Made by a program: the position numbers and the translations under genes | DNA from: Escherichia phage vB_EcoA_4HA11 | Length of the DNA stretch: 64,000 nucleotides | Direction: 5' to 3' (one strand) | Sequence record: MN445184 | Part shown: piece after piece, positions 1,757 to 36,823 of the stretch | Numbering within the stretch: the first letter of the stretch is position 1 | Layout of the letters: each line of letters opens with the position of its first letter | The notes under the pieces: model-generated | Database searches by the model: none | What the model was told of the DNA's origin: nothing | Seen by the model: only the letters and a program-made list of their open reading frames with translations

Positions 1757-2485
1757 TTATTTCAGGGACTCTTTTAATTCTGGAGTCCCTATTTTATCAA
1801 TAACGCCTCCAGCACAGAGATCTTTAGCCCATTCTCCAAGAACATTCGCAAAAGAGAAGTTTAGACATTCTTTGATCATACTTTCAATATGAGCAAGTTC
1901 TGCAGCTATCCCATCGGTGATATCGTTTATAACTCCATTGACGGCGGTTATTGCCTCATTGATATGTCCTGTTACTTCAGCAGCCAATTGCTGTAGTTTT
2001 GCCATCCCTTCTGAGGCACCTTCCATAATCATGTCATACAATTCCGATATCTTGTTTGTTACGGTCTGTAGAGCACCTTCCATAGCATTCAGCCATTGGC
2101 GTCCTAAATCCTGAACAACACCAAAAGCCTTGTTGATCAAATCACAATTGTTTGGCTCTCGTGATATACCCTTCAGACCTGATTTGTATGACACGGAAGT
2201 ACCGATGCGAGAATACGCGTCATTGATACTTTGGTCTCCATATGTGTTCAGTGTCGTTATCCCCGTGTTGGCGGCGCTATACATGGTGGTGGCTGCTGTG
2301 AGTTTTTCTGGTGTTAGTCCACCAGCAACCATAGCCGCCTGCATCTCCGGAGTCGCGTTGGCAGTTATCAATGGTATATTGGTACTACCACTGGTGATTA
2401 AATCCTGTGAGGGACCGGAGAGGGACGGAAGCGGGTTGCTAAATGCATTACCAGAGGAAAGGACATCGTAGATTTGTGCGTTCAT
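1757..2485 (-). CDS. hypothetical structural protein
   Basis: 242-aa ORF, ATG start, preceded by TATAAATA box and GGGGG-containing hairpin. Confidence 0.6.
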   Translation of the reverse strand: MNAQIYDVLSSGNAFSNPLPSLSGPSQDLITSGSTNIPLITANATPEMQAAMVAGGLTPEKLTAATTMYSAANTGITTLNTYGDQSINDAYSRIGTSVSYKSGLKGISREPNNCDLINKAFGVVQDLGRQWLNAMEGALQTVTNKISELYDMIMEGASEGMAKLQQLAAEVTGHINEAITAVNGVINDITDGIAAELAHIESMIKECLNFSFANVLGEWAKDLCAGGVIDKIGTPELKESLK

Positions 2486-2486
2486 A

Positions 2487-2516
2487 AAATACCCCCAATT
2501 TTGGGGGTATTTATAA
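2487..2516 (-). promoter_or_regulatory. late-promoter-like TATAAATA box fused to a 12-bp-arm perfect palindrome (AAATACCCCCAA/TTGGGGGTATTT) 1 nt upstream of the start codon
   Basis: Read directly; palindrome 2487-2512 has GGGGG (SD-like) in one arm; minus strand reads TTATAAATACCCCC. Confidence 0.45.
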
Positions 2517-14240: not shown

Positions 14241-16451
14241 TCAATTCTTAAACCACTCATCCATGGTCATCCCTGACATTTCGTTGAAAACTTGAATACC
14301 CCCGAAACCAGGCAAATGCTCAGTTTCGGATGGGGTGTCTCCAACGACTAAACCGCCAAATGGGAATACCTGCTGAGATTCAGTTGAAGACATTCGGTTT
14401 CTCATGTCCTGAGAAATACTTGTAGATGTCAAATCACTGAACCATTCTTGTTTTACCGCCCATGAATATAAGACCAACGGCATGACACAGTCATCGTGAC
14501 AACCGTCATCGGCTTCATACCGAGCGCCTTTGAACACAAATGTACTGAGTTCATCTATCGTGTCCTGGTCTTCTATCACCAACATTTCTTTCTCAATGAG
14601 CGCTTTCAGGTTAGCACAACCGATAGATCGGACTTTTCTGTTGGTATTGATACCAGGTTCCGGTTTACGCCCACCAATCCGTTTCCCCGTCCCTTTGTTA
14701 TCTGTTGATGTGAATATGATTTCTGGATATTCTATCTCTTGATAAAGAATTGTAATAACCTGACCGCCGACGTCGTTGTTTGTTTCAACAAGGACAGGAC
14801 ATTCCCCGTATTCGGTGCACATATCAGCTATCGTGTATGCATACATCATAGGAGGTATCGTATTATTCCTGTACTTGGCTGCTATGACATGCGGATATTC
14901 AGTTATATCCAGAATTGTTAAGACGGAATAATCTCCTTCCACCCCCTTCCCAGTGTCCGCAATCCCAAAGTAGAGACGTTGTGGGTCGTATTCCTTATAA
15001 ATCTTGGTGAATTCATTAGGTTCCCGATACAACTTGGACGTCATTTTATCTAAGCATTTGGCCGGAATCAATGAACCCACGGAACCACGGAACTTAATGC
15101 CAAATTCTTGATCGAAACGAGCATCCCCCAGACGGGCACGTTGTTTGGTTTCCCAATCTGGATCTTTGGTATATGCCGGAACCTTATACCATGGGACTTC
15201 AGTTAGGTGGAAGTCGTTGTATTGTGGATGGCGCGGATCTGCTTTGGTGACAATATCATAGAACAACCCTCGCTGGCCTTTCGGAGTACTTGTCAAAATA
15301 CAGCGTGATGTATCGGCAGATGCAATGGCTGGGAAAGTTGATTCCCAAAATTCAAAGTCGTTTTCGATAAACGCGACTTCGTCAACGTACAAGAGCGATA
15401 CAGAACGACCACGGATGGAGTCCGAAGACGTGGCATAAGCGTATATCTTAGAACCATTTTCAAACTCTATCAGGGTAGAACCAAACTTCTCACAACCCTG
15501 CTGAAGGAAGAATGGAAGGTCTTGGTATGCCTTTCTGATACGGTCAAGAATTTCTATCGCTTGTTTCTCTTTGTTTGCCAGTACTGCGATTTCCTTATCA
15601 GAATGGAACATCGCATACCAAAGAAGAAACGCCGCCACCACGGTCGTGTTATGACTGAGAAAGCCATTCGTGTAATAACGTTGATCACTAGATTTGACCT
15701 GCAGATCGTACATATGGTGATATTCACCAGTCTGCCAAATCTCACGGATTTCTTCTGGACCTTCTGTCGTCATGATGTATGACCCAGCATTCAGGTCTTT
15801 GGCAAATGTCTCCTTCATGTCCGGAGTGAAGAACATATGTTCATCGGCCACGTTAATTCGCCTTCCGGTAACTGTGACAATAACGAATTCCGCATATTTC
15901 TTCGTCTTATGCGCTGCGATAACCGGAACCCAGCCACTATCGGATTGTACAAAGTAACGTTTGCCGAAGCGGCTGTCCACGAACTTGTCATGGTTGCCAA
16001 TGGTATTCAGCGGCACAGCGTGGTTGACGTCCTCGAATCGGCTGTGAAGCTCCCCTATGGTCAGGAGCAACTCCTCTTGGCTGAGAGTATCGTAAACTGT
16101 GACAAGCGTGTCGCCTTTTACACATTTTCCAGACTGACGAGCCTGGATGACCGCATTGAATCGATAGTCCTGAAAGTCATGGAACAACTGTTTCTGATAA
16201 TCATGCATATCGAAAAGGATAAAGCCTTTATCGATCGTGGTTATCTTGTAATAGTTGGCGGCGAAGTAGTGTGCATCCATAGAACATTCAACGAATTCGT
16301 CTTCTTGTTCATCTGTCAGCATTAACTCGACTCGAGGAGCACGCACAGAAGGTTTGCGCATAAACGTTTGGTCCATACGCAATTTCACATCGTCTATTTT
16401 GAACCCCGTTTTAATTGGGGCATATTCTATATCACGCTTCTGATACGCCAT
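14241..16451 (-). CDS. terminase large subunit (T4 gp17-like) containing a mini-intein
   Basis: Walker A QARQSGK|TTVVAAF split by an insert beginning Cys and ending His-Asn before Thr; rest of protein aligns with gp17 ATPase/nuclease. Confidence 0.9.
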   Translation of the reverse strand: MAYQKRDIEYAPIKTGFKIDDVKLRMDQTFMRKPSVRAPRVELMLTDEQEDEFVECSMDAHYFAANYYKITTIDKGFILFDMHDYQKQLFHDFQDYRFNAVIQARQSGKCVKGDTLVTVYDTLSQEELLLTIGELHSRFEDVNHAVPLNTIGNHDKFVDSRFGKRYFVQSDSGWVPVIAAHKTKKYAEFVIVTVTGRRINVADEHMFFTPDMKETFAKDLNAGSYIMTTEGPEEIREIWQTGEYHHMYDLQVKSSDQRYYTNGFLSHNTTVVAAFLLWYAMFHSDKEIAVLANKEKQAIEILDRIRKAYQDLPFFLQQGCEKFGSTLIEFENGSKIYAYATSSDSIRGRSVSLLYVDEVAFIENDFEFWESTFPAIASADTSRCILTSTPKGQRGLFYDIVTKADPRHPQYNDFHLTEVPWYKVPAYTKDPDWETKQRARLGDARFDQEFGIKFRGSVGSLIPAKCLDKMTSKLYREPNEFTKIYKEYDPQRLYFGIADTGKGVEGDYSVLTILDITEYPHVIAAKYRNNTIPPMMYAYTIADMCTEYGECPVLVETNNDVGGQVITILYQEIEYPEIIFTSTDNKGTGKRIGGRKPEPGINTNRKVRSIGCANLKALIEKEMLVIEDQDTIDELSTFVFKGARYEADDGCHDDCVMPLVLYSWAVKQEWFSDLTSTSISQDMRNRMSSTESQQVFPFGGLVVGDTPSETEHLPGFGGIQVFNEMSGMTMDEWFKN
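15648..16124 (-). other. mini-intein (159 aa, no endonuclease domain) inside the terminase P-loop
   Basis: Starts CVKGDTLV (Cys1), ends ...NGFLSHN followed by Thr; extein junction reconstitutes GKT; boundary codons checked against the sequence. Confidence 0.8.
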
Positions 16452-18457: not shown

Positions 18458-18515
18458 AATATTTTCCTCAAGATTTAAATATATTTAGTTGAATTTGTTT
18501 TTAAGGTGAATCAAT

Positions 18516-19226
18516 ATGATCGTCCTGACAGAAGGAATTGCTTCTAAAAGAATCAAATCATATGCTTCTTCTAGAGGTGGAATATTTCACGGATTTGTCG
18601 GTGGTAAATTTGTCACCAACCAAACTAAGTGTATTTTGTCTTGCGAATTTGGTCATGAATGGAACTCAGCAACTTATGCGAATTTGATAAATAAAGGAAG
18701 TTGGTGTCCTTCGTGTCGTGGAAACAAGAAGATCTCAAATGAAGAAGCTAAAATCAGGATATCGGAGTACGCCGTAAGCAACGGTGGTAAATTCATAAAT
18801 TTCATTGGCGGGAAGTACAAAGACAACGTGACAATTTGTGTCATGGAATGTTCTGAAACACACAGGTGGGAATCCAGGTACGGTAATTTAGTCAACAGCC
18901 GAAGTTGGTGTCCGTATTGCGCAGAATCGGGTTACAATTATTCTAAGGAAGGTTTCTTATATATTCTAGTCAACGACGAAGGTTGTATGAAAGTGGGAAT
19001 AACCAACTCACCTAAGAAACGCATAAATTGTTTAAGAAGCAGCACCCCGTTTGACTTCAACGTTCTAGAAATATTCAATTCAACCGACGGATTATTTGTT
19101 TCCAGGTTGGAAAGAATTGCCCATAGAATGTGTAAGAGCGCGGGATATAAGGATTTTGACGGTGCTACCGAATGGTTTGTATATGACGGGTCAGTCGTAG
19201 ATTTTATCAGAAATATTTTGAAGTAG
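18516..19226 (+). CDS. homing endonuclease-like protein (GIY-YIG/T5orf172-type nuclease with tandem zinc-ribbon modules)
   Basis: Two repeated Cys/His modules (C..C..H..SWCP.C) then GFLYIL..KVGIT..R; opposite strand to neighbours. Confidence 0.55.
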   Translation: MIVLTEGIASKRIKSYASSRGGIFHGFVGGKFVTNQTKCILSCEFGHEWNSATYANLINKGSWCPSCRGNKKISNEEAKIRISEYAVSNGGKFINFIGGKYKDNVTICVMECSETHRWESRYGNLVNSRSWCPYCAESGYNYSKEGFLYILVNDEGCMKVGITNSPKKRINCLRSSTPFDFNVLEIFNSTDGLFVSRLERIAHRMCKSAGYKDFDGATEWFVYDGSVVDFIRNILK

Positions 19227-25829: not shown

Positions 25830-28142
25830 CTATGATCCTATAATTTTATAGGTTAGAGAAGTATTACCATCAACTGGATCAGCATCTATTCCTGTCGGTC
25901 TTGACGCTGTCTTAACCATGACACCAGCGATAGTTTGTCCAGCTGTTGCACCTACATACTTAGAACAATTTACAGAATAGAATAATTGCCTGTATTCAAT
26001 ATTACCCTGAATCTCACTTAGTACAACATAGGCCGCACCAGAATCCACTGGGCAGTTAGTATGTATGTTTACTTTTTCCGTGGTGGAGACTCTAAACATA
26101 TGGCCGCCATCTGTAGATATACCAGCAAGCCCAATTAATGATAATGTCCCACCGGTTTTGATAAGGAAGCTACTACCAGAATTTGCCTTCAAGCTACCAG
26201 TACCTTCAAAATTAACCATCGGCAACTCCGTGTTAGAGGTAATGGCTATCTCACCTGGGTTAAGATAAACTCTTTTGCACTTGAATAGCTGGCATAACTT
26301 TGAAATATTAAGTAGCTCTCTTATAGGTTTGGTTCCGTTAAATCCCCAGTTGTAGTTATTACCATTTACAGGATCTATGTATAGAGTGTCTGCTTTTACA
26401 CCAACAACATCTTTGATATAGAAAATGTCACCAACTTCCCCAAATTGGAATTGACTTCCCATATTTGTACAGTCGAGTACCAATGTAGGGTAGTTACCAG
26501 TACCTCTAACGAGTTTTAAACCACCTACTGGCATTTGTCCTCTGACAACATTTCGAGCAGTTTCTGGGCAGTTTTTAAGGAAGTACATACTATCTAGATC
26601 AGGGTCTTGTCCGGAAAGACCTACCCCTGACAACGTAACATCTGAACTGGTATTGATCAGGTAGAAACTATGTTTTTTCTTCCCACCAGATGATTCAATG
26701 TGGGGTTTATCAACCATAAATAAACCGTAGGAATCAGTATCCCGGCCAGCGTGAACAAAGTCGAATGATGCTTGTTCGATGATTGGGCTATTAAACTTAA
26801 CCTCTGAACCTGCAAACTGAGTGATGGCAACATCACCTACCTCAGTAAACCCTGCTGGTTTATACACCGCTTGTTCTAGCTCACCATTGGTATTACCAAG
26901 GCGGGAAATGTAAGCATTGTTTACAGTAGCACCGCCATTAGAGTCAATGAACACTGCGCCCTGAGTTTTATACAGGATGCGTAGATTTTCATGAACAGAA
27001 CCCCATGATGCTGACTGCAACAATCCTACTCTTGGCAGTCTTGCTGTTGTAATATCGCTCCCTGTATTCTCCCCAATAGATAACCCTTTTGTAGTGCAAC
27101 CTGCCCCACCTATCCATTTAACACCAACCTTTACACCTGGTGCTGTAATCAGGTTAAGGTTACTAATATCAATTTTTCTGGCACATGTTACAGCGTACCC
27201 ATTATCAATATCTAACCCAGTAGGATAATAATCTACATCTTTATTGAGTTTGTATGAACCATCGGGTTGTTTACGGTACACCATTAAGCTGATTGCTGCT
27301 GTATTCTTATCTACTGGGTCATAAAACAATCCTTGCTTACACTCACGAGTAAAAAAGTTTGGTGCTGGCATTTCAATTGAAACACCTGGGGGTATGTATA
27401 GCGTCTCTGTGAAACGGTATAACTTGGTCAGGTTAATTTTTACTGCTACTTTCTCCATGTACGAGTTTACAGCCGCAGCATCAGGAAGTGTTTCAGGAAC
27501 GTTGTTTATGTCTGAAAGCATTTCTTTTAATTTTGAAGTATCGTCAGCTATTCCGTCGCCTACCGCATTGTACTGTTCAGGTGTGCGTACAGTTAATACA
27601 TTATTTAGCGTCCCGTGCGGATGAACTCCAATCAACGAGCCATTGCCGTTTGCCAGTTGTGTTCTCAAAGAAGCATCACCAACACTAACCCACGCGCCAA
27701 GACCAATACCACCAGTTGATGCAGGAGTTGAACCGGCAGGGACAGCTTTAGGTAATGCTCCATCCCAGCGATACTTACCATCTGTATAAGTGAGTAATTC
27801 ATTTTTAACGTTAAGCGTAGAACCAGAATCAAACGAACCAGGTAAGGTTACGTATTCTTCACGAGATACAGCTAATGCGCCTAAGTCTACAGAACCTGCT
27901 GAATGTACAAGTACAGCAGCAGTATTAAGACTGACGGCAGTAGTACCAGAAGCAATACCAGCAGGTAAGGAATAAGCTCTTTGCGTTTCCTTGTCATAGA
28001 TAACTTTATACCCCCCTAAATCTACACCAACCGAAAAGTAAACAATCTCAGATTGCTTAACCCCAAAGTGTCTAGCTACTGCTTGTTTGTTGGTTAGGAT
28101 TCCAGTTGAACCCTTACCACCTTGACTAAACATCTCGTTCAT
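25830..28142 (-). CDS. tailspike protein with shared N-terminal anchor module (TSP1-like, 770 aa)
   Basis: N-terminal ~150 aa (VSREEYVTLPGSF...KYRWDGALPK..AGSTPASTGG.GLGAWVSVGDA) near-identical to the 698-aa and 1167-aa proteins; divergent C-terminal domain. Confidence 0.8.
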   Translation of the reverse strand: MNEMFSQGGKGSTGILTNKQAVARHFGVKQSEIVYFSVGVDLGGYKVIYDKETQRAYSLPAGIASGTTAVSLNTAAVLVHSAGSVDLGALAVSREEYVTLPGSFDSGSTLNVKNELLTYTDGKYRWDGALPKAVPAGSTPASTGGIGLGAWVSVGDASLRTQLANGNGSLIGVHPHGTLNNVLTVRTPEQYNAVGDGIADDTSKLKEMLSDINNVPETLPDAAAVNSYMEKVAVKINLTKLYRFTETLYIPPGVSIEMPAPNFFTRECKQGLFYDPVDKNTAAISLMVYRKQPDGSYKLNKDVDYYPTGLDIDNGYAVTCARKIDISNLNLITAPGVKVGVKWIGGAGCTTKGLSIGENTGSDITTARLPRVGLLQSASWGSVHENLRILYKTQGAVFIDSNGGATVNNAYISRLGNTNGELEQAVYKPAGFTEVGDVAITQFAGSEVKFNSPIIEQASFDFVHAGRDTDSYGLFMVDKPHIESSGGKKKHSFYLINTSSDVTLSGVGLSGQDPDLDSMYFLKNCPETARNVVRGQMPVGGLKLVRGTGNYPTLVLDCTNMGSQFQFGEVGDIFYIKDVVGVKADTLYIDPVNGNNYNWGFNGTKPIRELLNISKLCQLFKCKRVYLNPGEIAITSNTELPMVNFEGTGSLKANSGSSFLIKTGGTLSLIGLAGISTDGGHMFRVSTTEKVNIHTNCPVDSGAAYVVLSEIQGNIEYRQLFYSVNCSKYVGATAGQTIAGVMVKTASRPTGIDADPVDGNTSLTYKIIGS

Positions 28143-28164
28143 ACATACCTCTTTGTTTTTCTAG

Positions 28165-28195
28165 TAAGCCCCTCCTAAGAGGGGTGTATTTTTTT
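28165..28195 (-). terminator. terminator-like hairpin after tailspike gene
   Basis: CCCCTC-CTAA-GAGGGG hairpin with T-rich flank. Confidence 0.5.
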
Positions 28196-30959
28196 AAATA
28201 GAAGAATCCAATATACGGTAACTAATTAACTTAGTAGGGTCTACCGGATTAATCAGATTGTAGTATCGTGAGGCTACATAATCGTTCTCGGAAGAGAACA
28301 TACCAACATACACTTTAGCGCCCACCCCAGAACAAGCATCCCCACCAGCATTGCTATCTGAGAAGAACGTTAATGGGGAAGTTAATCCGAATATAGAATT
28401 AAATGGTACGGCTAAATAAGCGCCTCGGAATGACCGTCTGATTCTCTTACCCGTCTGAATATTAAGAATACTCCACCAGAAATATCCTGGTTTAGCACCA
28501 ATAGCTATATGATATGGTACACCACTTTGTAGTTTAAGGTCGTTAGGTAAATCCCCAGATAAAATTTGGGTTGTACCATCGCCCCCCAATAGCAAAGCAA
28601 TTGTTTGTTTTCCAGAAGCGTCTATAACTAATTGAAGATGAAGACTGTTGGATGTATCACTAAACCCTGAACCAATGGCCATGAAGTTAAATACTTCAGC
28701 TCCAGATATGGTGGGTACTACAACAGCAGCCATGGTAATACCTTCTGGACCTGCTGTTCTTGAATACAGTAATTTATCTTTGTTGGCTTGTGATAGTCTC
28801 AGACCATTTACTTGCCCTACAGAAGATGGGACACTTACATAAACAGGTGTAGTGCTAACACCATCAAATGTAGGGGTCTCGTTCATGGTTTGCAAACCAG
28901 TCTTGGAATAATTAACCAATCCGTTAATGCTCAGGTCGGAATTGGTGGGGTTGATAATATTGTTATCACCAATAAAGTTAATGCCCATATAACCAGTCTC
29001 AACCACACCATTAATGGTGACACTACAATCATTAGACAGGAACTGAAAATTGCCTGCACTAGAGTTAGCACCTGAACCACTATTCGCGGCATAATTGAGT
29101 CCTACGAATCCGTTGATAACTGCATCACTTTTGTTAAATACGATGTTGTAGAAAGTGTTGTTAGCATTGATGCCGTTACGATTGGTGTTCAATCCGTTCA
29201 TGGAAATTGAATATGAATCGCTAATCTCAATGCCATTCCCGCCACAATCTTGTACCTCAATACCATTAATAACCATATTCTGGCTGTTATTAATAGTAAT
29301 GCCTGGAAACTGTCCTACTGTACCATAAGGTTGCCAGTTAGCCCAAATGAATTTACCGCCAATAATACGACCATTACCACAACCATCAAGAACTAGACAT
29401 TGTTTACCGCAGGTATTAACCTGGATATTTGTCCAAGTCCAATCAGTAGTAGCACAACGGACACCCACCTGATTGATGTGGTTGACTAAAAGAGAATCTG
29501 TAGTAACACTAAAGTTACCACTATCAATATTTAACCCATATTCATCAAAACCTGCTATATGGACCTTAGAAATACACAAGTCCCGTCTTGGGTCTGCGGT
29601 AGTGTGGAACGGATAATCGGCTGAGAGACCTGAAGGAGTTTCTACATAGATACCTGTTGTGCCCGCAGTAAATGACGTGCCTTGTTGTGCACCTGTGCCA
29701 TATACCCCAAAGGCGTCTAATACAATAAGGGAGCATGTATCTTTTATGGTAATACAATTCCCAGTAGCAGAAGGCAACTGATGCAACCTTGAGTAATGTA
29801 ATCCAGACCCATAAATAGACGACGTATTATATTTTAACTGGATATTGCTAACGTAATGTACACCAGTTAATTGTGTGGCCTTACCACTATCCACACAAGA
29901 TTGTACTGGAATAGTATCATCATTAGAACCACCCAAAGCACCAAACATGAATGGGTTAACTCTATCAGCATTAACACGTAACCATGCTGCGCCGCCAACA
30001 GTTTTGATCACAGTACCGTTATTATCAGTCTTTCCTGTACCATCAATTAACGCACGGAATACCCCTCCACCAAGAAGAGTACCCGCAGTGTGTTGCTTAA
30101 GAATAATGCGTTGTCCATCCATAGTGGGTTCAGTATTCCTGAGATCAGCAACAGAATGGCATTCTCCAATATACTTGGCACCATCATTGCGCCCCAGAGT
30201 GTTTATCACATTAATAAATGAATCTTCTAAAGGCAACAAATCAACCTGCACATCACCTGGGTTGTAATTCAATTTCCCAGCAGATACAGAAGAAATGACA
30301 GAACCATCAGGAATGGTTGGTAAACCATAACTGGTTTGCGTCGCTATATCATAAACAACTTTCTTCCCATCCAACAAAGATATGGTGTCCGTACTAACGA
30401 TGACTTCAGAGTCTTTTACATTAGCAGAACGGGCGATTTCTTGAATACTTCGGTCAAACGCCGGACTGATATTCGGTTGTTTAACAGACATTTCAGCGAC
30501 TACCCAAACGCCTGCAGTCAGTGCAGTTTGCAAAGACACTTTCCCTGTCGTGCTGTTATAGGAATATTCAATTTCGGGTGTTTTGTACTCGCCACCGATA
30601 TAAAGAGATTGGACACCATAGGATGTGAAATCAGGAGTGAACTCGGTTTCACCCCCTACGGCTTGAAATTTGTATATGCGGATACCTTTGGCTGTATCTT
30701 CTGGCGAAAGAATTTTATCGAATAAGCAATACACAACATCGCCTTTGGACAATGCGCGCCCGAGATTCAACGTATTTCCTTCGATTTCAAAGTTGTCTAA
30801 GGGAACTTGCATACCACCGTTGATTGTGACTACGCCAGTGACAGGATAGAACGGCAAGGAAAGGAAAGTTTCTCCACCAACATTTGATTTATACGTGAAA
30901 GGAATCTGGTGGGGAGCTGTGATTACGCCGCCGAATAATTCTTCTACATTTCTGGTCAT
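28194..30959 (-). CDS. tailspike protein (TSP2-like, about 921 aa)
   Basis: Divergent copy of the shared module internally; start taken as MTRN by analogy with the conserved leader; in-frame ATG 15 nt upstream cannot be excluded. Confidence 0.75.
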   Translation of the reverse strand: MTRNVEELFGGVITAPHQIPFTYKSNVGGETFLSLPFYPVTGVVTINGGMQVPLDNFEIEGNTLNLGRALSKGDVVYCLFDKILSPEDTAKGIRIYKFQAVGGETEFTPDFTSYGVQSLYIGGEYKTPEIEYSYNSTTGKVSLQTALTAGVWVVAEMSVKQPNISPAFDRSIQEIARSANVKDSEVIVSTDTISLLDGKKVVYDIATQTSYGLPTIPDGSVISSVSAGKLNYNPGDVQVDLLPLEDSFINVINTLGRNDGAKYIGECHSVADLRNTEPTMDGQRIILKQHTAGTLLGGGVFRALIDGTGKTDNNGTVIKTVGGAAWLRVNADRVNPFMFGALGGSNDDTIPVQSCVDSGKATQLTGVHYVSNIQLKYNTSSIYGSGLHYSRLHQLPSATGNCITIKDTCSLIVLDAFGVYGTGAQQGTSFTAGTTGIYVETPSGLSADYPFHTTADPRRDLCISKVHIAGFDEYGLNIDSGNFSVTTDSLLVNHINQVGVRCATTDWTWTNIQVNTCGKQCLVLDGCGNGRIIGGKFIWANWQPYGTVGQFPGITINNSQNMVINGIEVQDCGGNGIEISDSYSISMNGLNTNRNGINANNTFYNIVFNKSDAVINGFVGLNYAANSGSGANSSAGNFQFLSNDCSVTINGVVETGYMGINFIGDNNIINPTNSDLSINGLVNYSKTGLQTMNETPTFDGVSTTPVYVSVPSSVGQVNGLRLSQANKDKLLYSRTAGPEGITMAAVVVPTISGAEVFNFMAIGSGFSDTSNSLHLQLVIDASGKQTIALLLGGDGTTQILSGDLPNDLKLQSGVPYHIAIGAKPGYFWWSILNIQTGKRIRRSFRGAYLAVPFNSIFGLTSPLTFFSDSNAGGDACSGVGAKVYVGMFSSENDYVASRYYNLINPVDPTKLISYRILDSSI

Positions 30960-31037
30960 TTGAAAATACCCCATAAGGATTTGCCAATATGGGGTATTTA
31001 GTCTGAACTAATAAAATTTATGAACAAAGGTATAATA
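30960..31037 (-). promoter_or_regulatory. conserved inter-tailspike cassette: ACTAAATA box plus leader hairpin (AAUACCCCAU/AUGGGGUAUU)
   Basis: About 90% identical to 33172-33248; hairpin 3' arm carries GGGG just 5' of the start codon. Confidence 0.5.
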
Positions 31038-31062
31038 AGAACCCCGCCAAAGCGGGGTTTTT
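31038..31062 (-). terminator. intrinsic terminator after tailspike gene
   Basis: CCCCGC-UUUG-GCGGGG hairpin plus U-run. Confidence 0.6.
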
Positions 31063-31074
31063 GCTCAAGATAAA

Positions 31075-33171
31075 TTAAAGTGTGTATGTTACATAACTTC
31101 CATCTGGTTTTTTAGCAAGCAACCTCAATGCTCCGTCACTTCCGAAGAAGAATCCTATAGATGAATTATGTTCCAGAGCGCTCTCTGGTAATTGTAAAGG
31201 GGCAGCAGGTATACTCATATGCTTAAAGCCTAAGCGGTTAAGCTGAAACTCACCTACACGTACACCCTCCTGAATTGCCGAAAGCTTGACAATACTTGCC
31301 TCACCCCCTGGTGTAGCAACCTGGCAATCTGCCGTCATAAGCAAAGATGGGTTTGTAGTACCACCCATAGCAGGTTGCATTGCAAGTGTCATTTGGTTGG
31401 CACTATGCTGAACATTGATATTACCTCCCTGAATATCGCTTATATAGGTACATAGTAATTTCTTAGTACCGGAACCAGCACAGGAAACATTACTTACTTC
31501 TGAAGACGGAGCGTATATAGCGTAACCTTGTGTAGTATATGCATGGATGTTAATACCACGAAGTCTACTACCTCCCTCACAGGTAAGCTGATTTAGGTTA
31601 GTTAAATCCTTATTCGCACCTACTACAGTAATGTTAGTAATATCATTGTTAGTACCCCTATCGAAGACGCCTTCCTTATGGGCCTCATAAGTAACAACAT
31701 TATCAATAATATTTTTCTGACCATCCCACCAAGCACCAATCCCCATACAATCACGAGTAATAATATTACGGATGATATGTTGAGTAGGTAGGTGGAACCA
31801 TGGATACTCTGCGAGTGAGTAGTCATCCACACGTTCAGTTGGCGACCCTGTGTCAGCATTAACATCAATACCATCATAGTAACACTGGATTGTAGTTATA
31901 TTGTCGAACACTAAACGGTAGTTCCTGGCTGAACGACCTCCAATTTCGTTCTGATAGGTTTTAATACCTGATTCTCCAACACGGTATGAGATTAAATCCC
32001 TTACTCCACCATCATGGTCTGTACCACCATCATTGCGAATGAACAGTACAGCGGAACCAGAGCCATATTTTATCTCACCCCCAACAACCCAGTTGCCAGT
32101 ACCCCATGCAGTTGTATGATGGTTCTCAAATGTAATGCCCGATTCCAAAGCAATAAAATTGCGTGGATTCTTAACAAGAATCCTATTACATAAAGTAAAT
32201 AGATAACCACCAAATGTAGCTTCTGGGTTCTCTACGATGATATTATCGCCGCTCATTATTCGCAAAGTAGCACCAGCAACCTGATTTTTTACATTATCAG
32301 GAAGGTCGTCCCAAATATCTAAATCGTTAATATTTGGCTTATATCCAACATCCAAACGCTGCTGAACAGATGCCAGAACTTGTGTTGGGTCTGTAACCCA
32401 ATTACCGTTTGCATCGAATCGGTAAACAGTATACGGCGTAGTTTTAGTATGCATGTGCGGTTTCTTAATTACTGAACCCGCACCCAAACCATTCCAAACC
32501 AACATACCATCGCCAATGAATTTTCCTTTGCATTCAATGATTAAAACTTTACCGCTAAAATCTACATTCTCATCTGCAGTAAAAGTGTAGTCAACATCAA
32601 TAAGCAATCCATCTACGGCTGCTGTCGCTGCATCCTGTAATGTAGAATAATCAGATAACTTTACTGAATATTTGAATTTCTTATTAGCTTCCTGCCTAAA
32701 TGCAGCATCACCAACACTAACCCAAGCACCTAAACCAACGCCACCAGTTGATGCTGGAGTTGAACCAGCAGGAACAACTTTAGGTAATGCACCATCCCAT
32801 CGATATTTTTCATCATCGTGAACAAGAAGTTCATTTTTCACATTAATAGTATGGCCGAAATTAAAAGAACCAGGTAAAGTCACATATTCTTCGCGGCTTA
32901 CTGCTAATTCCCCGAGATCAACAGAGCCAGAAGAATGAGTAAGGATGGCTTGTTCGTTCAGACTTATCGCAGTCGTTCCTGAAACAATACCTGAAGGAAG
33001 AGAATAAGCCCGTTGGGTAGACTCATCATAAATTACTTTAAATCCGCTGAGATCAATACCGACAGTGAAATAAATGACTTCGTCTTCTTTGACACCGAAA
33101 TTTCGAGCGATAGATTGTTTGTTAACTTCTATGGAAGTGGAGCCGCGTGGTTGATTGAATTGAGAAATCAT
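31075..33171 (-). CDS. tailspike protein (TSP3-like, 698 aa)
   Basis: Shared N-terminal module; ATG start after conserved leader. Confidence 0.8.
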   Translation of the reverse strand: MISQFNQPRGSTSIEVNKQSIARNFGVKEDEVIYFTVGIDLSGFKVIYDESTQRAYSLPSGIVSGTTAISLNEQAILTHSSGSVDLGELAVSREEYVTLPGSFNFGHTINVKNELLVHDDEKYRWDGALPKVVPAGSTPASTGGVGLGAWVSVGDAAFRQEANKKFKYSVKLSDYSTLQDAATAAVDGLLIDVDYTFTADENVDFSGKVLIIECKGKFIGDGMLVWNGLGAGSVIKKPHMHTKTTPYTVYRFDANGNWVTDPTQVLASVQQRLDVGYKPNINDLDIWDDLPDNVKNQVAGATLRIMSGDNIIVENPEATFGGYLFTLCNRILVKNPRNFIALESGITFENHHTTAWGTGNWVVGGEIKYGSGSAVLFIRNDGGTDHDGGVRDLISYRVGESGIKTYQNEIGGRSARNYRLVFDNITTIQCYYDGIDVNADTGSPTERVDDYSLAEYPWFHLPTQHIIRNIITRDCMGIGAWWDGQKNIIDNVVTYEAHKEGVFDRGTNNDITNITVVGANKDLTNLNQLTCEGGSRLRGINIHAYTTQGYAIYAPSSEVSNVSCAGSGTKKLLCTYISDIQGGNINVQHSANQMTLAMQPAMGGTTNPSLLMTADCQVATPGGEASIVKLSAIQEGVRVGEFQLNRLGFKHMSIPAAPLQLPESALEHNSSIGFFFGSDGALRLLAKKPDGSYVTYTL

Positions 33172-33248
33172 GATAATACCCCATAAAGGATGACCAATAT
33201 GGGGTATTTAGTCTGAATTAACAAAATTTTATAAACATGGATATAATA
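33172..33248 (-). promoter_or_regulatory. conserved inter-tailspike cassette copy 2 (ACTAAATA box plus leader hairpin)
   Basis: Near-identical to 30960-31037. Confidence 0.5.
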
Positions 33249-33273
33249 AGAACCCCGCCGAAGCGGGGTTTTT
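33249..33273 (-). terminator. intrinsic terminator after tailspike gene
   Basis: CCCCGC-UUCG-GCGGGG hairpin plus U5. Confidence 0.6.
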
Positions 33274-33274
33274 A

Positions 33275-36200
33275 CTATGATGTAAATTTCATTGCATCCC
33301 ATGTTGTACCATTATGTCGATACCCGAAAATATTTGATGCCCCAGCAATAACATCATATCTGTCACCAGACGCATTACCAAAAGGCCTGTCAGGAACAGA
33401 AGTTGTGTCAGTTGCTAAAATGCCTTTAAACCACCATCCATTCTGGGTGTTTGGTTTGTATTTGTAAAATTGTTTAACATATGGTTGAGTTGGCGAGTCA
33501 ACATTAATTTGCCCATGAATACCAGCGTATCCGTATAAAGGTTCACTGGTATTCACATCACTGTATACATCAATGTTGAAGTAGTAATCCTGTACGGATA
33601 GTGGAGCTATCCCAAGCGCTGGATGCATCCATCTATCTGTTTTAATATCAGCAGTGAATTGCACAACACCAACAGTCACTCCTGCTGCTTGTTGCAATAA
33701 ACCCAGGACACCACCAAACTGACATTTTGTCATATTCCATTTAATATGCATTTCATCAAGGTGAACAAGATAATCGTTGGCAAATTTATTGGTAAACCTT
33801 ATGGCTGTGTTGTCTGATAATTGAGGTGAACCGTTGGTCCCGCAAGAGACAAAAGAGTCATTGCTGTTGAAAGTAGCACCTGTTTTTTGTTTACCCAAGC
33901 GAACACACCCCCAAAAACCTGAGAAAGTGTTATTTTCACTAACAACTTCTTTGAAATAGTCCAGGTCATAAGCAACGTTTGCAGCTTTTTGTTCAGTTGT
34001 CCAATCTGCGGCTCTGTTTTTTTGCAATATGTTATTATTTGCAGAGTAAATAATTGCATTAATAGTGGTTGGGTCAGATGACAAAACAGACGGCTGCTGT
34101 GTTGTGAATGCCGCAGTATTAGGATACCCGATAACTTGCTTTTCTGATCGTAGCGTTACAGTATTACCAATAAATCTGGCAACAGTTGTAACGTTAGGTA
34201 CGGTATCCAGAACCAAAGCACTACCTGCGTCCTCACAGACGTTATTTGTGAAGGTGACTATAGATGTCGATGTAGCACCGTCGTTAGCCTTCAGGAATGG
34301 GTAGCGAGCTTTTTTGGTGATGCATCCATCAACGATCCCATTACCATGACACTCAAATACCGTACACATGTCTGACATGGTTGGCTGGATACATTTAACG
34401 TTATTTATAACGTAGCCATCGGAATGAATTCTTATTGATGAGTGGTCTATTAGGTTACTGTTTCCAGTCACAGCGTCAGCAACGCGATAGAAGTTGCAAT
34501 TCTCTACACGCGTATTGTAGCTGTTGAACGCTGCCTGAGCTTCCTGGAATACCATTACGTTTGCACCAGGAGCATTCTTGACGTTAACTCCAGAAACAGT
34601 CACACCATTACTACCTTCGTAACAAGCTACTGCTGGACAATGAGCTTGTGCTCCAGACCAGTTCAATGGCGGGACAAGGTTATTGTCACCATTTTCATCA
34701 ATTAGCATATCGTGGACATATGCGTTCTGAATTTCACGAATACCATCACCGAAAACTACAAAGCCTTTAGTGCCCCCGTTTTCCTTATTGCGCTCAACAA
34801 CACCATCGGCAACATACAGTAACGTTGCGTCGCCATCGCCGATGAAAGTAACGTTGTTGCGAAGAAAAATCATAACTTCCTGATTACGATAAATAGTCAG
34901 ACCATGCGCCGTGCCTTCCACAAGAGTCGTTTTATCCAACAGATAAGTGCCAGCAGGAACCATGACAACTTGCTGGGATCCGAATAGTTCCGCACGTTTC
35001 TCCGCATGATAACCTGCGAGGTTTATAGCATCGACCGCGTCTACACCGATCTTATCTGCGATAGAATAGTTGTTATCAGCACCCCAGTTTGTAACAGACT
35101 GCCAATCATAATCTGTTAAATATCCAACACAGTAAAAATCGGGATAGTCTGGAACAGTTCCCGGCGCTACTGTATAACCACCACTTTGTATAGCACCATA
35201 TTTAACCCAGAAAAGACCACTTGAATCAACAAGAGCTTGCTCGTTGGTGGTTAAAACTGAACCTTGCAAGAAAGACCCAAACTTCTCGAATTTACTATTG
35301 ATATAATTATTAGCTACCCACTGGCGGGCAGTGGCATCACCAACACTCAACCACGCTCCCGAACCAACGCCTCCAGTTGTTGCAGGTGTTGAGCCAGCAG
35401 CTACAGTTTTAGGAAGTGTACCATCCCAACGATACTTTCCATCAGTATGGGTGAGTAATTCATTTTTAGTATTGATGACAGCACCAGAATCAAATGTCCC
35501 AGCCAAGGTAACATATTCTTCACGAGATACAGCTAATGCGCCCAGATCAACACTACCAGCAGAATGTACAAGCACAGCCGAAGAACTAAGGCTGACTGCC
35601 GTGGTTCCAGTCGGTAACTCTGGAATAAAATATGATCTCTGTGTTATTTTATCGTAGATAACTTTATACCCGCTTAACACAGCACCAACACTAAAATAAA
35701 CGACCTCTGTATCTTTAACATTGGTTACACGAGCCACTTCCCGCAAAGTATAATCAATTTGATTATAGATGTTTGGCGTTCCATTGATAATTACAACAAC
35801 TTCATCCTCTGCATCCAGTTCTTGCGCAAGAGTGATTTTACTGGTTAATGGATCGAATGTGAACCCCAGATTTTTATACTGGCGACTTCCGTTTATATCA
35901 ATGGCCGGAACATCATCAACAACGACGTCTAACGTGATTTCGGTTTCACCGCCAATCGCTGAACCCCCATTATAGACCCAAGTAATCGTAGAAGAACTAG
36001 AATCACCGCCATTACCCAATTGAATAGGAGTATATTCAATCACCTGAAGTTCTGTGCTGGCTGGCAAAGAAGGACTGAAAGTGATTACATTCCCATCTAG
36101 TGAATATTTGGATTCCGCAAGACGTTTTCCGTCAGCATACACGTCCACGATTGTTGGTGGAGTATTGAGAGTGACAGCACTTGTTTCAGACGCCAAAATT

Positions 36201-36778
36201 TGTGTAAAGATTTCACGACTGTAGACACGGCCTTGACCAAGACCGACGCCGGATGTAATAACCCAACCTTGTTCAGGTCCAGACCAAGTGAACGTTGCTG
36301 ATACGTTATCAGTTGTTATAGCCATGTCTTCAGTGGAGCCATACAAATTATTTCCAGAAGGAGACACGGTCAATGGGTAAGTGGCAAATTTCCCATAAGC
36401 ATCACAAATAGTAACGGAATCCCCAATACGCGTAGGGGGAGGGAGAACCACTGTAGATGCCCCTGTGGTATTATTAATGAGATAGCCACGACCTTCTAAC
36501 AAATTGCTAGAGGGAGCGTGAGGGAGCGTTTCCCAGCGTATTCCACCACCCCCCAAAGACAACCAACCACCGTTTTCGTAATAACCTTCAAATTCATCAC
36601 TATCAGGATTGTAACGCACAGAAGATGGAAGACCTGTAACTTCAGTATCTTCAGGAAATGTCATTACGGCACCAGGGGAATGCTCAATAGTGCCGGAGTT
36701 GTTGAAGCCTTTTATGTTCGAAGACTCAGAAGTTTCTAAACCCAAAGGGAAAAGAGGCTGTGTTGGTTTGTTGGCCAT
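33275..36778 (-). CDS. tailspike protein with extended N-terminal region (TSP4-like, 1167 aa)
   Basis: Shared module located internally (about residues 330-480) after a ~330-aa N-terminal extension. Confidence 0.8.
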   Translation of the reverse strand: MANKPTQPLFPLGLETSESSNIKGFNNSGTIEHSPGAVMTFPEDTEVTGLPSSVRYNPDSDEFEGYYENGGWLSLGGGGIRWETLPHAPSSNLLEGRGYLINNTTGASTVVLPPPTRIGDSVTICDAYGKFATYPLTVSPSGNNLYGSTEDMAITTDNVSATFTWSGPEQGWVITSGVGLGQGRVYSREIFTQILASETSAVTLNTPPTIVDVYADGKRLAESKYSLDGNVITFSPSLPASTELQVIEYTPIQLGNGGDSSSSTITWVYNGGSAIGGETEITLDVVVDDVPAIDINGSRQYKNLGFTFDPLTSKITLAQELDAEDEVVVIINGTPNIYNQIDYTLREVARVTNVKDTEVVYFSVGAVLSGYKVIYDKITQRSYFIPELPTGTTAVSLSSSAVLVHSAGSVDLGALAVSREEYVTLAGTFDSGAVINTKNELLTHTDGKYRWDGTLPKTVAAGSTPATTGGVGSGAWLSVGDATARQWVANNYINSKFEKFGSFLQGSVLTTNEQALVDSSGLFWVKYGAIQSGGYTVAPGTVPDYPDFYCVGYLTDYDWQSVTNWGADNNYSIADKIGVDAVDAINLAGYHAEKRAELFGSQQVVMVPAGTYLLDKTTLVEGTAHGLTIYRNQEVMIFLRNNVTFIGDGDATLLYVADGVVERNKENGGTKGFVVFGDGIREIQNAYVHDMLIDENGDNNLVPPLNWSGAQAHCPAVACYEGSNGVTVSGVNVKNAPGANVMVFQEAQAAFNSYNTRVENCNFYRVADAVTGNSNLIDHSSIRIHSDGYVINNVKCIQPTMSDMCTVFECHGNGIVDGCITKKARYPFLKANDGATSTSIVTFTNNVCEDAGSALVLDTVPNVTTVARFIGNTVTLRSEKQVIGYPNTAAFTTQQPSVLSSDPTTINAIIYSANNNILQKNRAADWTTEQKAANVAYDLDYFKEVVSENNTFSGFWGCVRLGKQKTGATFNSNDSFVSCGTNGSPQLSDNTAIRFTNKFANDYLVHLDEMHIKWNMTKCQFGGVLGLLQQAAGVTVGVVQFTADIKTDRWMHPALGIAPLSVQDYYFNIDVYSDVNTSEPLYGYAGIHGQINVDSPTQPYVKQFYKYKPNTQNGWWFKGILATDTTSVPDRPFGNASGDRYDVIAGASNIFGYRHNGTTWDAMKFTS

Positions 36779-36782
36779 TTGT

Positions 36783-36823
36783 AATACCCCTAAATGTATT
36801 CATGTCATCTAGGGGTATTTAGT
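36783..36823 (-). promoter_or_regulatory. ACTAAATA box plus leader hairpin upstream of the 1167-aa tailspike
   Basis: AAUACCCCUA/UAGGGGUAUU 10-bp stem ending 5 nt before the ATG. Confidence 0.45.

Follow-up and report, generated by a model that had tools for sequence, protein, structure and literature searches.

Late promoters that appear to be embedded in ribosome-site-masking hairpins at the tailspike genes of a Kuttervirus

What purpose is served by two nearly identical spacers between tailspike genes: do they set the expression of the gene that follows, or do they provide homology for the exchange of receptor-binding genes? The question arises in a 64,000-nucleotide (nt) stretch of DNA (hereafter, the window) from Escherichia phage vB_EcoA_4HA11 (sequence record MN445184), whose region 30700-33500 is 99.9% identical to the Salmonella phages S115, S118 and rabagast (Ackermannviridae, Kuttervirus) and thus identifies the window as Kuttervirus DNA. 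Four tailspike genes lie here in a row:

33275-36778, minus strand: tailspike gene TSP4
31075-33171, minus strand: tailspike gene TSP3
28194-30959, minus strand: tailspike gene TSP2 (the annotated start, which fits the ribosome site)
25830-28142, minus strand: tailspike gene TSP1

The spacer before TSP2 (spacer A, 30960-31074) and that before TSP3 (spacer B, 33172-33274) match in 90 of 101 ungapped columns, or 89%, in line with the figure of about 90% in an initial annotation of this DNA, which had proposed that the spacers allow cassette exchange and that a hairpin within them may couple termination to translation initiation. Our analysis points to a different function as the probable one: in each spacer a late promoter seems to be embedded in a hairpin that masks the ribosome site, an arrangement in which the gene's own late messenger RNA (mRNA) would be translated and read-through RNA would stay silent.

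On the minus strand both spacers follow the same order, namely a terminator, the box ACTAAATA followed by CCCC, and a hairpin of the form AA(A)UACCCCAUA / UAUGGGGUAUU(U) that ends 4–6 nt before the ATG:

33251-33270, minus strand: intrinsic terminator after TSP4, AACCCCGC-TTCG-GCGGGGTT, then CTTATTAT; 8 pairs, 6 of them GC, and a tetraloop
33205-33212, minus strand: T4-type late promoter of TSP3, ACTAAATA, an instance of the known motif CTAAATAcCcc; GenBank OP991882.2 has a late-promoter feature in this spacer
33175-33208, minus strand: TSP3 leader hairpin, 5′ arm 33208-33198 (AAUACCCCAUA), 3′ arm 33185-33175 (UAUGGGGUAUU)
31040-31059, minus strand: intrinsic terminator after TSP3, AACCCCGC-TTTG-GCGGGGTT, then CTTATTAT; 8 pairs, 6 of them GC, and a tetraloop
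30995-31002, minus strand: T4-type late promoter of TSP2, ACTAAATA, by motif match
30964-30999, minus strand: TSP2 leader hairpin, 5′ arm 30999-30988, 3′ arm 30975-30964

The hairpin stems comprise 11–12 base pairs (bp), and the 3′ arm contains the Shine-Dalgarno sequence GGGGU 7–9 nt ahead of the ATG (33182-33178 for the TSP3 start codon at 33171-33169; 30972-30968 for the TSP2 start codon at 30959-30957). TSP2 truly starts at position 30959 and not, as the program that listed open reading frames had it, at an in-frame ATG at 30974, which falls within the 3′ arm of the hairpin. Both terminators lie ~40 nt before the promoter and have the features of Rho-independent terminators (a GC-rich stem-loop and a U-rich tract, downstream of a stop codon), with an interrupted U-tract. 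The initial annotation had this anatomy right in both spacers, including the GGGG just before the start, but it listed box and leader hairpin as separate items, which they are not: the 5′ arm begins with the four bases that end the box.

This overlap matters because of what the box is. ACTAAATA is a gp55-type (T4-like) late promoter. Members of the Ackermannviridae encode homologues of gp55, gp33 and gp45, the components of T4-type late transcription, and the annotation of the near-identical S115 genome includes a gp55-like sigma factor (orf97), a gp33-like co-activator (orf64) and a sliding clamp (orf129), all located outside the window. The sequence CTAAATAcCcc has been named as a regulatory or late-promoter motif of the Ackermannviridae (PMC7283392), which a citing paper, where it refers to the motif, ascribes to Adriaenssens et al. 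2012 (PMC9965104), and GenBank OP991882.2 carries a feature 'Kuttervirus late gene promoter' in spacer B. Within the window, CTAAATACCCC with at most one mismatch occurs six times (0.76 expected); CTAAATAcCcc itself is found in four exact copies, at 31001, 33211, 36822 and 48536, along with one TATAAATACCCC, in each case upstream of a gene and co-oriented with it. For the shorter CTAAATA there are 16 occurrences where 6.8±2.7 would be expected; 14 of them are co-oriented with the local genes, and most lie just 5′ of a structural gene (for the scaffold, neck, VriC, gp6 or a tailspike). At 18475-18488, two divergent late-promoter boxes overlap as the palindrome TTAAATATATTTAG, with a minus-strand CTAAATA preceding the gp14-like neck gene and a plus-strand TTAAATA preceding the open reading frame 18516-19226.

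In T4, the TATAAATA box occupies positions −13 to −6 (PMC2988020). If the same rule holds here, late transcripts would start inside the hairpin, just after the CCCC, and an A or G is indeed available there at every site (the sixth to seventh base past the box). The 5′ arm (AAUACCCC...) combines the final four bases of the box with the bases at −5 to −1, which would not be transcribed, and hence the gene's own late mRNA could not form the hairpin. Late promoters without a hairpin have AT- or pyrimidine-rich sequence at −5 to −1, as in T4 (PMC2988020), and not CCCC. The four-base overlap between ACTAAATA or TATAAATA and the 5′ arm is present at all six sites of this kind in the window. Besides the two spacers, these include the three leaders to which the initial annotation had extended the architecture, before the 1167-amino-acid tailspike (TSP4, box at 36822), gene 1757-2485 (2515) and the ADP-ribosyltransferase (ART)-like gene (48536), all of which are borne out, and a sixth site, absent from its list, whose stem differs in sequence:

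36783-36823, minus strand: TSP4 late promoter AACTAAATA (36823-36816) with a 14-bp leader hairpin, arms 36819-36806 and 36796-36783
2482-2516, minus strand: TATAAATA (2515-2508) with a hairpin, before the DUF7217 gene 1757-2485; leader −17.8 kcal/mol, late start −0.2 kcal/mol
48536-48566, plus strand: CTAAATA (48536-48542) with a hairpin (48540-48550 paired with 48556-48566), before the ART-PolyVal gene at 48569
59629-59661, plus strand: TATAAATA (59629-59636) with a hairpin, arms AAUAUCCUCGC / GCGAGGAUAUU, Shine-Dalgarno GAGGA, before the gene of a 55-amino-acid membrane protein, ATG at 59665

Folding of these leaders draws a sharp line between the two kinds of transcript. When the box is included, the six leaders have predicted energies of −17.8 to −20.9 kcal/mol (z-scores of −4 to −5.7, with 0 of 200 shuffles as stable) and the Shine-Dalgarno sequence, GGGGU or GAGGA, is fully paired in the 3′ arm; when they start 6 nt after the box, the energies are −0.2 to −5.2 kcal/mol and the z-scores are about 0. 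For TSP3, the full leader gives −20.9 kcal/mol (z −4.73) and the late-start leader −5.2 kcal/mol (z 0), with corresponding values of −18.7 (z −4.06) and −3.8 kcal/mol for TSP2, −19.1 (z −5.74) and −3.2 kcal/mol for TSP4, −18.7 and −2.1 kcal/mol for the ART-PolyVal gene, and −18.1 and −0.8 kcal/mol for the 55-amino-acid gene, whose layout is TATAAATA-UCCUCGC...GCGAGGA-UAUU. Over the sites, GGGGU lies 4–8 nt from the AUG; on the ribosome, it could pair with the anti-Shine-Dalgarno sequence in the GAGGU register, with one G·U pair. A single natural variant with a weakened TSP3 hairpin was seen, in a 161.5-kb Kuttervirus contig (L011, ~14640-14685), in which GGGGCATT replaces GGGGTATT and the energy is −14.9 instead of −19.6 kcal/mol. 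Rfam at its gathering threshold reports only three tRNAs in the window.

These features suggest the following mechanism. Each inter-tailspike spacer would consist of a terminator and then a self-contained late expression signal, in which the last bases of the box together with CCCCAUA form the 5′ arm and the 3′ arm UAUGGGGUAUU holds the Shine-Dalgarno sequence of the next tailspike gene. Polymerase would start ~6 nt past the TATA box, after the CCCC, to yield a late mRNA that lacks the 5′ arm and whose ribosome site is free, such that it is translated. A transcript that arrives from upstream would carry the whole hairpin and be translationally silent for that gene. Candidates for such silenced RNAs, whose existence and block we infer from this layout, are terminator read-through in the spacers, a late transcript of gp6 to orf167 running into TSP4, and early transcripts at the ART-like and 55-amino-acid genes. 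At TSP4, there is no terminator upstream and the stop codon of orf167 (36827-36825) lies 2 nt ahead of the promoter; therefore, late transcripts from the gp6 promoter (40684) must enter the gene.

This control device would be that of the T4 lysozyme gene, gene e, whose late promoter was reportedly placed inside a ribosome-site-sequestering hairpin by McPheeters et al. in 1986. The long early RNA of gene e is translationally silent, and RNAs that start from the late promoters inside the hairpin are translated (PMC3014915). Treated in the same way as a control, the gene e leader TAAATACCTTC-TATAAATACT-TAGGAGGTATTATG gives −14.9 kcal/mol as part of the long RNA and −2.8 kcal/mol when begun at the late start. 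The two systems share a TATAAATA-type box that runs directly into the 5′ arm, a 3′ arm with the Shine-Dalgarno sequence and UAUU before the AUG, and the property that long transcripts fold whereas late-start transcripts cannot. The likeness is closest in the S115 endolysin gene, which sits among early-type genes (Pfam Muramidase and PG_binding_1, with a match to a PHROG endolysin family): its leader, TAAATACCTTCGCA-loop-TGCGGAGGTATT, gives −18.0 against −2.6 kcal/mol for the late start, and TAAATACCTTCGCA...TGCGGAGGTATT is nearly the TAAATACCTTC...TAGGAGGTATT of gene e, with TAAATACCTTC...GGAGGTATT as the shared design, although the enzymes differ in Pfam family. Matched arms of other sequences, in the same arrangement, are found in S115 at the endolysin, orf67, the gp14-like neck gene, orf173 and orf175. 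There are also differences from gene e, in that the Kuttervirus box is usually CTAAATA and the Shine-Dalgarno sequence GGGGU, the device stands on tailspike genes in a late cluster, with terminators before two of them, and several near-identical copies occur per genome; furthermore, the function of the gene e leader has been demonstrated, and that of the Kuttervirus leaders is predicted.

It is worth considering whether the hairpin could instead be part of the mature late mRNA, either to stabilise its 5′ end or as a fold that temperature or a phage factor would open. Stabilisation by 5′ hairpins is known from certain phage and bacterial mRNAs, and the TSP3 and TSP2 leaders can add an outer helix in which UUCAGA pairs with the AUG region. 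However, such an mRNA would have to start upstream of the promoter's own −10 element, where there is no conserved alternative promoter, and a perfect stem of 11–14 bp at −18 to −21 kcal/mol over the Shine-Dalgarno sequence would stay closed at 37–42 °C and shut off translation of structural proteins that are abundant. We consider this explanation very improbable. In keeping with these points, an alternative promoter in the AT-rich stretch of the spacers was rejected because the stretch is not conserved (it is absent in loci L009 and L010 and in other genera), and an RNA thermometer was rejected on account of the perfect stems at −18 to −21 kcal/mol.

If the hairpin is to act in this way, it should be more than the chance pairing of two conserved motifs, and several lines of evidence argue for selection on the hairpin itself. 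First, the stems extend beyond CCCC/GGGG: over nine site classes there are 36 additional pairs, compared with 5.5±2.8 when the inner sequence is shuffled (0 of 20000 shuffles reach this), and the extensions differ in sequence from site to site (UAGAUG/CAUUUA, AUA/UAU, AUAC/GUGU, AAUG/CAUU, AUUAGG/CCUGAU and AUAAC/GUUAU). Second, sites with other Shine-Dalgarno sequences carry 5′ arms that match them, as in UCCUCGC/GCGAGGA, CCUUCGC/GCGGAGG and CCCAUAAC/GUUAUGGG. Third, over the whole S115 genome, promoter-proximal segments stabilise their own leaders by a mean of −4.29 kcal/mol, as compared with −1.86±0.30 when segments are swapped (0 of 5000 permutations), and ten sites reach −8 kcal/mol or lower where 0.87 are expected, a result that holds without the CCCC class. 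Likewise, across 18 loci in which the protein of the upstream gene ranges from 100% to 51% identity, the loop varies in length and sequence, also between genera, and both arms persist. The AT- or pyrimidine-rich −5 to −1 positions of late promoters that lack a hairpin point the same way.

Several observations weigh against the proposed switch. Among orthologues of the endolysin leader, three pairs show one-sided changes that preserve a wobble pair, and there are no double compensatory changes; two loci from another Ackermannviridae lineage (L066 and L067) keep CTAAATACCCC without a GGGG partner; in the literature searched, we found no transcript 5′ ends or expression data for any Ackermannviridae phage; and the silencing of early read-through, which is the classical rationale for such a hairpin, does not obviously apply to the tailspikes. 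This last doubt arises because only late promoters and late genes are found upstream, the single addition on the tailspike strand being one weak sigma-70-like site at 40979-40950, and what benefit there would be in silencing late read-through is conjecture. TSP1, in addition, has neither late promoter nor masking hairpin and uses an ordinary AGAGG ribosome site, so that any notion of equal insulated units misses one of the four tailspikes.

The first two of these observations could be taken to mean that the hairpin has no function in RNA at all, and that the complementarity is a by-product of a conserved CTAAATAcCcc and an unusual, independently conserved GGGGUAU ribosome site copied together as one cassette: the arms are invariant among orthologues, without two-sided covariation, and CCCC without GGGG exists. 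Because L066 and L067 retain CTAAATACCCC with no such partner, CCCC may also be favoured by the promoter itself. Nonetheless, copying of motifs leaves the stem extensions, the alternative arm pairs, the permutation test and the variable loops unexplained, and there is very little chance that this explanation is correct. Orthologue alignments are uninformative on their own; the case for selection rests on the paralogous arm variants, the stem extensions and the permutation test. In L066 and L067 (~2700-2790) the CTAAATACCCC motif lies in the loop of a different hairpin, CTCAGTGTGG...CCACACTGAG, with its 5′ arm upstream of the promoter and its 3′ arm running into a GAGGA ribosome site, a different build with the same logic of a late start inside a hairpin.

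The sites outside the tailspike cluster bear on the origin of the RNAs that might be silenced. The early-type promoter motif of the Ackermannviridae, TTCAAT-N14-TATAAT, matches at 40929-40954 and 55218-55243 on the plus strand and, with one mismatch, at 44119, 46498, 59852 and 62344 (plus) and 51263 (minus); nearly all of these matches are on the plus strand, around genes of DNA metabolism and DNA modification. The ART-PolyVal gene lies downstream of a pyridoxal phosphate (PLP)-enzyme gene and the early-promoter-like site at 46498, and the 55-amino-acid gene lies downstream of an amino-acid:DNA transferase gene and the early motif at 55218. Both genes thus sit behind DNA-modification genes of early type and fit the logic of a late gene inside an earlier transcription unit. 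In this they resemble T4 soc, gene 49 and I-TevI, which, like gene e, are silent on long RNAs and translated from late promoters inside the hairpin, and which together with mobE of Aeh1 carry the same class of inhibitory leader hairpins (PMC3014915), although the genes are unrelated and the Kuttervirus sites have no homing-endonuclease or intron context.

The same sites speak to whether the hairpin is tied to events upstream of it. The coupling of termination to translation initiation suggested in the initial annotation finds no support: the hairpin occurs without a terminator at TSP4, at gene 1757-2485, at the ART-like gene and at TSP3 of L009 and L010, and with the 5′ arm being part of a late promoter, a late transcript begun there should be free of the hairpin. 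A related idea is translational coupling, in which a ribosome terminating on the upstream gene would melt the 5′ arm and so make translation of the long RNA depend on upstream translation. In four of the six cases in the window, 5–11 nt indeed separate the preceding stop codon from the base where pairing of the 5′ arm begins (the orf167 stop at TSP4, TGA at 2519-2517 for gene 1757-2485, TAA at 48527-48529 for the ART-like gene and TGA at 59626-59628 for the 55-amino-acid gene). However, the stop is 34–80 nt away at TSP3, TSP2 and the endolysin, and for both of these tailspikes a terminator intervenes, which makes the idea inapplicable there; a terminating ribosome would open only ~5–7 of the 11–14 pairs; and the precedent of T4 gene e is a plain block (PMC3014915). 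We regard such coupling as improbable.

Whether the spacers also serve recombination can be judged from where related loci begin and cease to be similar, a comparison that the initial annotation had called for and that we carried out on ten Kuttervirus loci and on sampled rows from 170 and 250 GenBank phage records. In TSP4, the conserved part ends at 35334 (at 35698 or 35730 in two of the ten loci), and beyond the variable part the sequences are alike again from 33273-33280 (five loci), from 33240 (one locus) or from 33211, which is the C of CTAAATA (two loci). The variable part of TSP3 extends from 32390 or ~32700 to 31057-31070. The points of resumption fall into three classes in each spacer, namely the stop codon or start of the terminator (33272-33282 in spacer B, 31057-31062 in spacer A), the middle of the AT-rich stretch (33240/33234 and 31021-31022) and CTAAATA (33211 and 31001-31007), and the same three classes appear in both GenBank samples. 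In other genera (phages of Klebsiella, Serratia and Enterobacter), similarity begins exactly at CTAAATA. The downstream breakpoints therefore cluster at the spacers, as that annotation had led one to look for, in a way that does not separate a crossover in the spacer from one in the adjacent conserved N-terminal coding block. The breakpoints on the upstream side fall within the coding sequence of the genes themselves (35334 for TSP4, 32390-32705 for TSP3), and thus the idea of cassette exchange survives in part: the spacers delimit modules and contribute to the homology downstream, but the exchanged unit is less than a whole gene bounded by a spacer on either side.

These breakpoints (35334, ~32700 and ~27670 in the window) fall at the end of a 230-nt block that is paralogous among TSP4, TSP3 and TSP1. 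It is the TD1/GTTAVSL recombination site already proposed for the swapping of receptor-binding modules in Kuttervirus tailspikes (Sørensen et al., PMC8432352); that work does not discuss the spacers, whereas the present comparison locates the downstream boundary at three points within them. The only intragenomic rearrangement seen, in a 159,128-bp Kuttervirus contig of IMG/VR (L006, 6589-9663), is a 1024-amino-acid fusion of the TSP4 N-terminus to the TSP3 receptor-binding part, with no separate TSP3, that was made via the paralogous block (window 35566-35334 against 32937-32705) and not via the spacers. The 3′-terminal ~60 nt of TSP3, together with the terminator that follows (window 31032-31138), recur with 88–98% identity in the ~45-kb Salmonella siphoviruses D10, VSt472 and 64795_sal3. 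In D10 (Skatevirus; L223, 2501-2610), this sequence is an orphan remnant ~180 nt downstream of a 675-amino-acid open reading frame, which we take to be a putative tailspike gene. From such comparisons, the terminator half tends to travel with the receptor-binding domain upstream of it, and the promoter-hairpin with the N-terminal coding part of the next gene forms a constant block of downstream homology for domain exchange.

These data allow a judgement on the view that the spacers are mainly recombination cassettes, that is, homology arms for swaps of whole tailspikes, with the hairpin linking termination to initiation. The three discrete boundary points, the presence of the terminator half even in unrelated siphoviruses, and a spacer pair that is more alike in several genomes than in the window are all in its favour. 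The upstream boundary in coding sequence, with its TD1-like block that also served the L006 rearrangement, is not, nor is the occurrence of the hairpin without a terminator. Furthermore, the promoter-hairpin is kept across genera and at the endolysin, ART-like and DUF7217 genes, which are not exchanged, and this indicates a function in expression. As a full account of the spacers we find this view possible, though on balance doubtful.

Some further features of the spacers deserve mention. The AT-rich variant in spacer B of the window accompanies its particular TSP4 allele, and most other TSP4 alleles come with a version like that of spacer A. On the plus strand of spacer B, 33218-33247 is a strong sigma-70-like promoter match (TTAACA-18-TATAAT, 11 of 12 positions) directed antisense into TSP4; spacer A keeps the TATAAT with a poorer −35 element. 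The TSP2–TSP1 spacer (28143-28193) contains the stem-loop CCCCTC-TTAG-GAGGGG, with a poor U-tract on the gene strand and a run of seven T on the plus strand, and looks like a terminator for antisense transcription. TSP1 itself is interrupted by a frameshift in the GenBank entry of S115 (L001, 25829-28142) and is an intact open reading frame of 770 amino acids in the window (25830-28142).

Returning to the promoter embedded in a masking hairpin, one may ask why tailspike genes should have it. Our best guess, which is more speculative than the mechanism itself, is that TSP4, TSP3 and TSP2 are insulated units with similar output, because their promoters are identical from −13 to +2, their ribosome sites are identical and read-through RNA would be silenced. 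To go one step further, the three genes might be translationally insulated, dosage-matched 'sockets' into which foreign receptor-binding domains, often with their own terminator, plug while the stoichiometry of the branched complex is kept; insulation would then have co-evolved with host-range exchange, and the early-versus-late device of T4 would have been extended to late versus late. We hesitate to press this scenario, in which our confidence is low.

It is informative to place the device among what has been described. The sources for the Ackermannviridae motif treat CTAAATAcCcc as a bare promoter and mention neither pairing of cCcc with the Shine-Dalgarno sequence nor a hairpin, in one paper (PMC7283392) and in the part of the other that deals with the motif (PMC9965104), and a 2024 review of the Ackermannviridae mentions neither promoter, transcription nor hairpin. 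In the literature searched, the 2012 motif paper excepted, the pairing role of cCcc, the presence of the device on tailspikes of a late cluster and the location of exchange boundaries in the spacers appear not to have been stated. A scan of IMG/VR for TAAATACCCC-N(4-30)-GGGGTAT gave at least 120 stretches, which is no measure of prevalence given that the pattern is short and that, by a rough estimate, many matches are due to chance or are terminator-like. Among the matches listed, once filtered for a following open reading frame, are a 170.8-kb T4-like contig in which a lysozyme 75% identical to T4 e lies behind AATAAATACCCC-TATATAA-GGGGGTATTATG, a CCCC/GGGGG version of the hairpin, and metagenomic contigs, probably T4-like, with TATAAATACCCC...GGGGTATTTTTTTATG; hence, the CCCC/GGGG version is not peculiar to the Ackermannviridae. 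The layout TATAAATACCCC-loop-GGGGTATTTTTTTATG is present in L108, L151, L158, L164, L173, L105, L107, L126, L139, L202, L221 and other metagenomic contigs; in some it precedes a conserved open reading frame of 267–271 amino acids without a Pfam hit, and it is also found before one of 110–115 amino acids with a weak, below-cutoff match to PD-(D/E)XK nucleases, which recalls T4 gene 49.

If the device works as it does in the T4 lysozyme gene, it is neat and not a fundamentally new mechanism. It would nonetheless explain the 'cCcc' tail of the Ackermannviridae late-promoter motif as the partner of a ribosome-binding site, and it predicts a family-wide switch of the T4 lysozyme type that includes the endolysin, three tailspikes, an ADP-ribosyltransferase-like protein and small membrane proteins. 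Within the engineering of Kuttervirus tailspikes and reporter phages, a gene placed behind one of these promoters must either keep the matching 3′ arm or drop it deliberately, and a tailspike gene that retains the hairpin should stay unexpressed from transcripts that enter from upstream. The map of breakpoints, with a constant promoter-hairpin 'socket' and a variable 'plug' of receptor-binding domain plus terminator, points to the natural junctions for the construction of chimeras.

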